A stretch of 4,370 nt of DNA, taken from the IMG/VR virus record IMGVR_UViG_2734482585_000011. One strand, given 5' to 3'. This document shows, piece after piece, positions 1,409 to 4,370 of this stretch. The DNA comes from a virus (Duplodnaviria > Heunggongvirae > Uroviricota > Caudoviricetes). How positions within the stretch are numbered: position 1 is the stretch's first letter; the number at the start of each line of letters is the position of its first letter. Below the pieces are notes generated by a model that was not told where the DNA came from, searched no databases, and saw only the letters and a program-made list of their open reading frames with translations. Position numbers and translations under genes: made by a program.

Positions 1409-2957
1409 AATCCAGCTAAGCAGCGCGACCAACAGCACGTCTGAAACGCTGGCGGCAACGCCAAAGGCAGTAAAAGCAGCCAATGACAATGCTGAGAAAC
1501 GTCTGCAGAAAGATCAGAACGGTGCGGATATCCCTGGCAAAGACACCTTTACGAAAAATATTGGTGCCTGCCGTGCCTTCGGTGGGTCAGTAAGCACAAC
1601 AACAGGAAACTGGACGACTGCACAGTTTATCGAGTGGCTGGATTCTCAGGGAGCATTTAACCATCCATACTGGATGTGCAAGGGTTCCTGGTCTTATGGC
1701 AATAATAAAATCATTACTGATACTGGCTGCGGTAATATTCATCTCGCCGGAGCTGTCATTGAAGTAATGGGGATAAAGTCAGCGATGACGATCCGCATTA
1801 CCACTCCGACCACATCCAGCGGTGGCGGAACAACCAACGCCCAGTTTACCTATATTAATCACGGAACAGATTATTCACCTGGCTGGCGAAGGGACTATAA
1901 CTCCAGAAATAAGCCAACGGCATCAGAGATCGGGGCGCTACCGTCAGGTGGAACAGCAGTATCATCAGTTAATCTGGCTTCAAAAGGTCGGGTAGCCGCG
2001 CTGACAGACAATACGCAGGGGGCAGCAGGTCTTGAGTTATACGAGGTGTATAACAACGGATATCCAACAGCGTATGGAAATATCATTCACCTGAAAGGGA
2101 TGACAGCCGTTGGCGAAGGTGAGTTACTCATCGGCTGGAGTGGTACAAGCGGTGCTCATGCTCCGGCATTTATTCGTTCACGACGGGATACGACCGACGC
2201 AAACTGGTCGCCGTGGGCGCAGCTTTACACCTCGGCTCATCCTCCTGCAGAGTTTTATCCAGTCGGTGCACCAATCCCGTGGCCATCAGATACCGTTCCG
2301 TCTGGTTATGCCCTGATGCAGGGGCAGACTTTTGACAAATCTGCTTACCCGAAACTTGCAGCCGCTTATCCGTCAGGCGTGATCCCTGATATGCGTGGCT
2401 GGACGATTAAGGGCAAGCCCGCCAGTGGTCGTGCCGTATTGTCTCAGGAACAGGATGGCATTAAATCGCACACCCACAGCGCCAGCGCATCCAGTACGGA
2501 TTTGGGGACGAAAACCACATCGTCGTTTGATTACGGCACTAAATCCACGAATAACACCGGGGCGCATACGCACAGTCTGAGCGGCTCTACAAGTTCAGCT
2601 GGGGCCCACCAACATAGTCAGACTGGGCCCAGAACGAATAGCGGGAGTCAACCTACTGGAATGTTTCCGGCAGGGAGTACTCAAGTTAGCGGGACTAATC
2701 AGGTTGGTATCAGTGGCTCATTAACCAGTGGCACCTCCCAATGGGTAGGTAAATCATCTTCAGAAGGAAACCATACACACTCACTGTCCGGCACAGCAGC
2801 ATCTGCGGGTGCACACGCGCATACTGTCGGTATTGGTGCTCATACGCACTCTGTTGCGATTGGTTCACATGGACACACCATCACCGTTAACGCTGCTGGT
2901 AACGCGGAAAACACCGTCAAAAACATCGCATTTAACTATATTGTGAGGCTCGCATAA
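1409..2957 (+). CDS. stf: Side tail fibre protein Stf, C-terminal distal/receptor-binding part (5' end abuts N gap)
   Basis: Frame 3 is open from the gap edge (first full codon 1410) to TAA at 2955-2957. The translation begins [22 protein letters not shown]..., the conserved tail-fibre junction motif as I recall it from lambda Stf. The C-terminus carries seven HxH motifs between 2469 and 2876 (SHTHS, AHTHS, AHQHS, NHTHS, AHAHT, AHTHS, SHGHT). The track ORF 1674..2957 is only the part of this frame after an internal Met. Confidence 0.88.
2944..2948 (+). promoter_or_regulatory. Shine-Dalgarno (TGAGG) for tfa
   Basis: GAGG at 2945-2948, 8 nt upstream of the tfa ATG at 2957; it lies inside the 3' end of stf. 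Confidence 0.4.
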
Positions 2958-3538
2958 TGGCATTCAGAATGAGTGAACAAGCACGGACCATAAAAATTTA
3001 TAACCTGCTGGCCGGAACTAATGAATTTATTGGTGAAGGTGACGCATATATTCCGCCTCATACAGGTCTGCCTGCAAACAGTACCGATATTGCACCGCCA
3101 GATATTCCGGCTGGTTTCGTGGCTGTTTTCAACAGTGATGAGTCATCGTGGCATCTCGTTGAAGATCATCGGGGTAAAACGGTTTATGACGTGGCTTCCG
3201 GCGACGCGTTATTTATTTCTGAACTCGGCTCATTACCGGAAAATGTCACCTGGTTATCCCCGGAAGGGGAGTTTCAGAAGTGGAACGGCACAGCCTGGGT
3301 GAAGGATACGGAAGCAGAAAAACTGTTCCGGATCCGGGAGGCGGAAGAAACAAAAAACAGCCTGATGCAGGTAGCCAGTGAGCATATAGCGCCGCTTCAG
3401 GATGCTGTGGATCTGGAGATCGCAACGGAGAAAGAAACCTTGTTGCTGGAAGCTTGGAAAAAGTATCGGGTGTTGCTGAACCGTGTTGATACATCAACTG
3501 CACCGGATATTGAATGGCCAGTAGCACCTATAGGGTAA
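2957..3538 (+). CDS. tfa: Tail fibre assembly protein (chaperone) Tfa
   Basis: 193-codon ORF, ATG 2957 to TAA 3536-3538. The translation [79 protein letters not shown]... is near-identical, from memory, to lambda Tfa. The ATG overlaps the stf stop by 1 nt (TAATG), the usual stf-tfa arrangement. Confidence 0.93.
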
Positions 3539-3624
3539 ATTCGTAATGATTACCTAAATACGTTATTCTTTTGTTAAAAAAGTGATTTTGCTATAGGTAG
3601 GGAGTATGTTCTTGGATTAAGAAT

Positions 3625-3655
3625 AAAAAATCGCCATGAAAGAGCTTCATGGCGA
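3625..3655 (-). terminator. Intrinsic (rho-independent) terminator for leftward transcription
   Basis: Perfect 10-bp inverted repeat tcgccatgaa (3631-3640) / ttcatggcga (3646-3655) with a 5-nt loop (agagc). It is flanked on the left by A6 (3625-3630), which is a U6 tract immediately 3' of the hairpin on the minus strand. There is no U tract on the plus-strand side. Confidence 0.5.
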
Positions 3656-4287
3656 GTACATAAACGTACAAAATGTGATGAAAGTAGAGTGGCGTAAGCC
3701 ACTATATTAAGATATGACAATAGCGAAGAAAAGTAAATAACATTTTATGGACGTTTAATTGTTAATTATAAAAACTAGAGTGCCCGATATTGTTTATCTT
3801 GCTTTAAAATAATGTACTCAAACCAAATTTTTGAGCTAAAAGCTCAAATAATATAAATGCAATAATAATGTTTAATAAGACAATTAGCTTGCTTTGTATT
3901 TTCATTTCGGAATACTGTTAAGTAACTTTGATGACCCTAACAATAGATCGGAATTTTCTTAGAGTCAATGGTCACTGTTTTTGCTTGCAAAGCAAATGTT
4001 TTGGTGGTTATAAGTCGTCTTAATATAGTCACGCATGCAACTTGTTCCATGCGGAGATTAAAGATTGGAATATAACGCGAAGATGGAATTAAATTACATT
4101 TGCAATAATTAATTTATTATTACTCAATAATTACCGATATTATTATTGTAAATTAATCATTAGAATGCAAAAAGAAATGTAACGGCAAAATAAGAGGACG
4201 ATAGCTGAGAAAAAAGCGTGCTTTCCCAATCTGGGGCAAATCACGTCTGAATGACACCTGAAAACAGGTGGTAGCCTCAAGAAGGCT

Positions 4288-4310
4288 GGTGATGCTGCCA
4301 ACTTACTGAT
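4288..4310 (+). repeat. IS1 left terminal inverted repeat (IRL, about 23 bp)
   Basis: GGTGATGCTGCCAACTTACTGAT is the canonical IS1 terminal repeat. Flanking host sequence ends at 4287 (...aagaaggct). Confidence 0.85.
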
Positions 4311-4342
4311 TTAGTGTATGATGGTGTTTTTGAGGTGCTCCA

Positions 4343-4370
4343 GTGGCTTCTGTTTCTATCAGCTGTCCCT
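4343..4370 (+). CDS. insA: IS1 InsA (transposition regulator), N-terminus, 3' partial
   Basis: GTG GCT TCT GTT TCT ATC AGC TGT CCC translates to (M)ASVSISCP, the InsA N-terminus as I recall it. The GTG start at 4343 is assumed from that recollection. Confidence 0.6.

Follow-up and report, generated by a model that had tools for sequence, protein, structure and literature searches.

A conserved small open reading frame of lambda-like Escherichia coli prophages very probably encodes a membrane peptide distantly related to YncL

Does a short open reading frame in the AT-rich DNA behind the tail fibre assembly gene of a lambda-like prophage represent a gene, and what kind of product would it encode? 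The question arises from a stretch of viral DNA of 4,370 nucleotides (IMG/VR record IMGVR_UViG_2734482585_000011), termed here the window. An earlier note, made from the letters alone, pointed to a hydrophobic reading frame of 33 codons on the minus strand, with a promoter-like sequence upstream and a leftward terminator downstream, and likened the predicted product to small membrane proteins and type I toxins.

Judged by its list of open reading frames and by homologous RefSeq loci, the window corresponds to the right arm of a lambda-like prophage of E. coli. The side tail fibre gene stf ends at 2957. It is followed on the plus strand by the tail fibre assembly gene tfa (2957-3538), which is assigned from the open reading frame list and from the RefSeq annotation of homologous loci. 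An AT-rich spacer of ∼740 bp begins at 3540; GC content is 0.245-0.345 across 3600-4200, compared with 0.47-0.525 in stf and tfa. The gene order in homologous RefSeq genomes is J, lom, stf, tfa, the spacer and then variable cargo. The cargo was read at five loci (L001, L058, L059, L061 and L093) and consists of an AraC-family regulator with IS remnants (by attB-lambda/bio), sitABCD, a decayed prophage adjacent to ydfJ, or zinT. The upstream neighbour of the small-ORF module is tfa at each locus examined. As different cargo follows tfa and the module, the module is suggested to be a boundary of recombination in the exchange of prophage cargo.

In the window, an IS1 element whose left end occupies 4288-4370 (plus strand) breaks the spacer ∼320 bp upstream of the putative promoter. 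Homology to IS1-free loci ends at 4287, and one homologous locus (L002) runs on into an annotated IS1A transposase. In another contig (L056, 12586-12610) IS1 abuts the terminator stem, at the equivalent of window position 3659/3660, and the open reading frame is absent. The spacer looks like an IS1 target or a deletion hotspot.

Direct reading of the sequence bears out the proposed frame and its translation. The open reading frame (3804-3905, minus strand) extends over 33 codons from an ATG at 3905 to a TAA at 3806-3804 and encodes MKIQSKLIVLLNIIIAFILFELLAQKFGLSTLF; the ATG is the first start codon past an in-frame TAA five codons upstream. The peptide has a Lys-rich N-terminus, a single hydrophobic helix that includes Asn12, and a C-terminal K-F-G motif that is common to YncL. 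AlphaFold2 predicts one helix, residues 2-26, with a mean pLDDT of 86, and the best 19-residue hydropathy window of the peptide, 2.54, agrees with a single helix.

These properties are also those that might be expected of a chance frame in AT-rich non-coding DNA, whose conservation would then stem from recent ancestry or from constraint on the DNA or RNA and not on a protein. AT-rich DNA gives hydrophobic short open reading frames, and the 740 bp spacer has ∼9 frames of at least 25 amino acids in the open reading frame list. The frame in question has a GC content of ∼24%, lacks a Shine-Dalgarno sequence and is skipped by annotation pipelines. The earlier note had itself cautioned that such a frame and such a promoter can arise by chance, and the caution was justified: taken alone, neither is above chance in the AT-rich spacer. 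As these features are weak by themselves, the question needed comparison with related sequences.

Homologous loci were obtained from three sources: a viral-contig scan that used the terminator as its anchor and so took no account of the open reading frame; a 24-nt anchor upstream of the ATG; and BLAST against complete genomes. The open reading frame is intact in 62 of 62 loci and in all 38 distinct haplotypes of the region, among which there are only six distinct versions of the frame. The terminator-anchored scan returned 50 loci, two of which are without the region of the open reading frame, one because of a contig end and one because of an IS1 junction; the frame is kept in the other 48 of 48.

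A second deep lineage, found beside sitABCD (L055 and L058), has 79% DNA identity to the window type over 580 bp. Its open reading frame has exactly 33 codons with the same stop and encodes the peptide MKIQSKLIILLNIIFALILFKLLAQKFGLYTLF. The identity between the lineages over the frame (3905-3804) is 80%, which is no higher than the regional average and would suit a chance frame, but the changes are mostly synonymous. Based on these two deep lineages and shallow sub-lineages only, and hence on few independent changes, the comparison by the Nei-Gojobori method gives 11 synonymous differences in 19.7 sites and 7 non-synonymous differences in 79.3 sites, with a dN/dS of 0.09. The other five frames have dN/dS values from 0.18 to 6 and contain stops. 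The pS of 0.56 is above the divergence of the flanks, perhaps as noise from ∼20 sites. Random placement of the same 18 substitutions (13 transitions and 5 transversions) produces a mean of 11.2 amino-acid changes, and an intact frame with at most five such changes was obtained in 2 of 10,000 simulation trials (P = 2e-4). Insertions and deletions between the lineages are confined to the flanks, with 20 gap positions there and none in the 102 nt of the frame. Within the window-type lineage, seven sites of the frame are polymorphic, and these represent five synonymous changes plus I18V and A24D. The charge at residue 21 switches between the lineages, from Glu to Lys.

The five neighbouring open reading frames in the spacer served as negative controls, and for each of them at least one lineage has lost the start codon, acquired stops or undergone a shift of frame. 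The earlier note had proposed that a real gene would keep its frame in homologous loci and show a bias to synonymous substitutions; the frame is indeed kept there, with a strong synonymous excess, and the frame is under purifying selection at the protein level. On the basis of these comparisons, it is very probable that the open reading frame represents a real gene of lambda-like E. coli prophages, never annotated so far, whose product is a membrane peptide with one helix and a distant relationship to YncL.

Annotation and literature have passed the frame over. Gene callers almost never predict it; among 15 billion predicted proteins it is called on a handful of contigs, and it is annotated in no RefSeq or GenBank phage record examined. 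Two 'hypothetical proteins' in phage records are other frames of the spacer. One phage record labels a 37-amino-acid frame at 4050-3937 as 'hypothetical'; it was not accepted as a gene, and nor were the other neighbouring frames, given their disruption in other lineages. When 1.84 billion representative proteins were searched exhaustively with HMMER, only the peptide itself and one frameshift variant were returned, each on one to two contigs and neither named. The variant (P0002, two public Logan contigs) has 43 amino acids, of which residues 1-26 are identical and the remainder is frameshifted (…AQKIWFEYIILKQDKQYRAL), probably by a 1-nt deletion in the AAAAATTTGG run or by an assembly error; it is the only disrupted allele found. 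Full-text literature searches for the peptide string and the terminator sequence yielded no paper and no transcript, ribosome-footprint or peptide data.

What, then, is the peptide related to? For all four peptide variants the sole NCBIfam match is NF000537, 'stress response membrane protein YncL', and neighbouring open reading frames match nothing. The variants score 25.0, 23.5, 22.5 and 27.1 bits (E 2.8e-6 to 7.5e-5), compared with 68.6 bits for YncL of E. coli K-12, and residues 1-28 align without gaps on model positions 1-28 of 30. The scores fall below the curated equivalog cut-off of NF000537, which is 35 bits, so that the peptide is not YncL itself but a divergent relative. A curated equivalog cut-off can in this way conceal divergent mobile paralogs of core small proteins. 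BLASTP against K-12 YncL gives 11 identities in 28 residues (39%, residues 1-28) and 64% positives with no gaps (E 2e-7). Pfam and PADLOC gave no match to the peptide, and PHROGs gave none below E = 0.1.

A second model was built from YncL alone, with 18 distinct sequences from 29 loci that were found by a codon-pattern scan of one genome per GTDB species. All 29 loci represent true yncL, from Escherichia, Citrobacter, Intestinirhabdus and Superficieibacter. The prophage peptide scores 22.2 bits against this model, which is more than any of 100,000 composition-matched shuffles attained (maximum 19.2); of 5,501 natural ATG-initiated frames of 20-60 amino acids from all fetched loci, the highest-scoring unrelated one has 9.1 bits. 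The similarity to YncL is specific and goes beyond composition and the small-ORF background, though it is sub-threshold. No type of similarity is more prone to convergence than that between short transmembrane peptides. When viral contigs, one genome per GTDB species and metagenomes were scanned with degenerate codon patterns, every match was either a true YncL ortholog or a member of the two prophage lineages already described, with no intermediates to YncL and no third lineage. As the codon pattern was built from both sequences, the lack of false positives in those scans is not independent evidence.

The prophage peptide and YncL (E. coli K-12 b4598) are alike in length, 33 and 31 amino acids, align without gaps from Met1, and each form a single helix. 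Common to both are Ser5, Lys/Arg6, Leu10, Asn12, Ala16, Leu19-Phe20, Leu22 and a C-terminal [KR]-Phe-Gly. The two genes differ in their setting: the prophage gene is carried downstream of tfa, whereas yncL is part of the chromosomal patD-yncL-ortT locus. The prophage frame is without a Shine-Dalgarno sequence, whereas all YncL orthologs have AAGGTGG-like sites. The prophage frame is also very AT-rich, and the peptide ends in LSTLF where YncL ends in WFI and, unlike YncL, has a charged residue at position 21. Judged by its sequence, the peptide is best filed as a divergent, mobile, prophage-borne relative of YncL that is widespread yet unannotated; it does not represent a new category of system.

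Annotation systematically overlooks small membrane proteins. This one is found in ∼829 of 5,426 complete E. coli genomes (∼15%), at up to four copies per genome, and is also carried by inducible phages. A DNA search detected the module in four phage records, which represent three distinct phages (mEp332, PhiR70_1 and ev099). The element is absent from the Qin prophage of K-12. Morons are AT-rich transcription units that have been added to phage genomes and are autonomous; examples are lom and bor of lambda and gp15 of HK97 (PMC3594210). By its base composition, dedicated terminator, position at a module boundary and patchy distribution, the locus fits this definition. As with morons, its composition is unlike that of the tail genes, it lies beside the tail module and it is present only in some related phages. 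Its own terminator is clear and conserved, and it has a candidate promoter with conserved hexamers, although such promoter matches occur at chance frequency. It differs from described morons in that the open reading frame is far smaller and has no sequence relation to them. The reading that we consider probable is that the frame is a genuine gene, a moron of lambda-like E. coli prophages that is transcribed as a leftward unit and encodes a single-pass peptide of the inner membrane with distant homology to YncL.

The unit would read leftward, between tfa and the variable cargo at the prophage end. Its predicted layout consists of a sigma-70-type promoter (3968-3940), a leader of ∼28 nt, the open reading frame of 33 codons, a variable spacer of ∼80 nt and a structured 3′ end with a strong terminator. 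The putative promoter (3940-3968, minus strand) has TTGACT at 3968-3963, a 17-bp spacing and TATTGT at 3945-3940, and matches the consensus at 9 of 12 positions. A promoter scan reports the same TTGACT-17-TATTGT that had been noted from the letters. The hexamers are present and conserved, but they are a consensus match only, at a frequency not above chance: the spacer has five promoter-like sites compared with 4.1 expected from shuffles. In the divergent lineage the -35 hexamer TTGACT is identical and the -10 is TATCGT. Among ten distinct versions of the 3990-3900 stretch, a hexamer is changed in one. The promoter segment 3968-3934 is 86% identical across the lineages, compared with 76% just upstream.

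Transcription from this promoter would start near 3933, leaving an AU-rich 5′ leader of ∼28 nt (3906-3933, minus strand) that is without a Shine-Dalgarno sequence and is 75% identical between the two lineages (3933-3906). That such a sequence is lacking, as had been remarked earlier, is borne out by the best anti-Shine-Dalgarno duplex, -0.4 kcal/mol compared with -7.2 for K-12 yncL. The start region is weakly structured, with a minimum free energy of -5.3 kcal/mol over 88 nt and a mean unpaired probability of 0.58 around the ATG, and translation would presumably initiate independently of a Shine-Dalgarno contact. A terminator-like hairpin lies inside the open reading frame at 3848-3830; the divergent lineage loses two of its eight pairs (GAG to AAA), so that the hairpin is not conserved as a signal. 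As a terminator of a short sRNA this hairpin was rejected, because of the two broken pairs and because it has no proper U-run.

Expression from the prophage would yield a single-pass inner-membrane peptide, whose Lys-rich N-terminus should be cytoplasmic by the positive-inside rule. Production of YncL is reported to cause membrane depolarisation, a phage-shock response and condensation of the nucleoid, with a fall in protein synthesis (PMC12542507). In vivo, degradation of YncL depended on RseP, although cleavage by purified RseP was not reproducible (PMC10470546). On the model of YncL, accumulation of the prophage peptide in the membrane might partly dissipate the membrane potential, and the lowered potential might shift the cell into a state of low metabolism and stress tolerance; the effect on a lysogen could be better survival of stress or a barrier to superinfecting phages. 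YohP, a small membrane protein of E. coli with 27 amino acids, is reported to act as YncL does, by membrane depolarisation, nucleoid condensation and metabolic silencing (PMC12542507). It may serve as a working model for the mechanism of the prophage peptide, although no sequence similarity to it was detected and YohP is chromosomal. If the peptide behaves as YncL does, a family recently tied to depolarisation and metabolic silencing would gain its first phage-borne member. It would also point to a mechanism, open to testing, through which prophages could adjust stress tolerance, persistence or superinfection immunity of the host.

Downstream of the open reading frame, the leftward terminator that had been proposed is confirmed as an 11-bp stem (3655-3631) followed by a U-run. 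Terminator-like sites, unlike promoter-like ones, are enriched in the spacer, two compared with 0.4 expected, and the second of the two is the hairpin inside the open reading frame. The terminator is one-directional: it functions as a predicted signal on the minus strand only, where an A-run precedes the stem and a U-run follows. Being leftward only, it would halt transcription before antisense entry into the tail genes. Between the stop codon and the 3′ end lies a variable spacer (3721-3803, minus strand) with 65% identity and eight gap columns between the lineages; a 5-nt indel directly follows the stop codon. The structured 3′ end (3625-3720, minus strand) consists of a hairpin, AGUGGCUUACGCCACU (3703-3688), a single-stranded stretch, the terminator stem (3655-3631) and the U-run. 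At 89.6% identity, the 3′ element (3720-3625) is the segment of the module most conserved between the lineages; the tfa-proximal stretch next to it (3624-3540) has 67%. The single-stranded stretch of ∼30 nt, CUCUACUUUCAUCAYAUUUUGUACGUUUAUGUAC, is almost invariant. The folding z-score of the element is -5.4, and in the consensus structure one-sided changes mostly keep pairing by means of wobble pairs, with no compensatory double changes and no covariation. A conserved island of 16 of 20 positions (3729-3748, minus strand) lies within the variable spacer and displays TTTACT-17-TATCTT (TAAGTT in the other lineage). It could be a weak separate promoter with a start right at the 5′ hairpin of the 3′ element.

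This sequence pattern suggests that the 3′ element is an sRNA, either derived from the 3′-UTR or independently transcribed. The protein and RNA readings are compatible, as one mRNA could serve both. A dual-function module is conceivable, though rather unlikely: the transcript would be the mRNA for a depolarising peptide of the YncL kind, with a protective effect on the lysogen through, for example, a block to the pmf-dependent DNA entry of superinfecting phages or the induction of dormancy, and its near-invariant 3′ end, released from the transcript or separately transcribed, would be a regulatory sRNA that acts on host or phage transcripts.

It is a less likely proposition that the functional product is the RNA, with the 3′ element (3720-3625) as an Hfq-type sRNA, processed from the 3′-UTR or transcribed from its own promoter, and the open reading frame secondary or incidental. 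The high conservation of the element, its near-invariant single-stranded stretch between two hairpins, its strong folding and the potential promoter in the 3748-3729 island are consistent with such an RNA. So are weak same-strand matches to several Hfq-sRNA models, of which the best in an Rfam search of the spacer are VrrA with 23 bits (gathering threshold 50) and MicC with 22.8 bits (gathering threshold 90). However, no Rfam family reaches its threshold there, the paired positions have no compensatory changes, and an RNA product leaves the codon-position pattern of the open reading frame unexplained.

A role of the peptide as the toxin in a type I toxin-antitoxin system, silenced by an antisense or trans-acting RNA, also appears doubtful. 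The peptide is small and hydrophobic, as are Hok, Ldr, TisB, IbsC, ShoB, ZorO and DinQ, and has a basic N-terminus; by analogy with YncL a depolarising activity is plausible. Its homolog YncL depolarises the membrane when produced early, and hokD and some other toxins also reside in prophages. A promoter-like site on the plus strand (3714-3743) could in principle drive an antisense RNA over the open reading frame, but this site is at chance level and its -35 decays to ATAGCA in the divergent lineage, and the terminator scan detected no plus-strand terminator. No Hok, Ldr, TisB, Ibs, ShoB or other toxin model of NCBIfam or Pfam was matched, and YncL has no known antitoxin. The predicted leader is short and unstructured, in contrast to the long folded leaders typical of type I toxin mRNAs. 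Of the two architectures named in the earlier note, that of a small single-helix membrane protein gains from the kept frame and from the homology to YncL, sub-threshold as it is; that of a type I toxin found neither an antisense RNA signal nor a toxin-family match, and the peptide is not to be filed as a demonstrated toxin of this type.

A chance frame is now improbable, given the concentration of substitutions at synonymous positions, the indels in the flanks and none in the frame, the five broken control frames and a specific match to YncL.

The presence of a small hydrophobic peptide at this prophage end has a parallel in K-12. YnfT, a small hydrophobic protein of 37 amino acids in the Qin prophage (L095, 6891-7004), has an analogous place and orientation relative to tfaQ: its gene lies past the tail-fibre module, before the prophage end, on the strand that does not encode tfa. 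Although its sequence is unrelated, the parallel hints at small membrane peptides as a recurring type of cargo at this end.

Several minor features of the window may be added. The segment 4022-4101, which lies 55-130 bp upstream of the putative -35 hexamer, is identical at 70 of 80 positions across the two deep lineages, a higher conservation than that of the open reading frame itself. It contains GCATG...GCATGC motifs and may have a regulatory role or represent some other feature; the overlapping reading frames are disrupted in some of the lineages. Part of stf is masked by 352 consecutive N (1057-1408), and the readable N-terminal part of the gene (40-1056) consists of Ala/Ser/Thr-rich low-complexity repeats, where weak spurious isrG matches occur on the minus strand. 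The Rfam family IS009 (RF02111) matches with 218 bits at 3300-3498 (plus strand), wholly within the tfa coding sequence, and this 'sRNA' family may perhaps be just a model of a tfa gene fragment.
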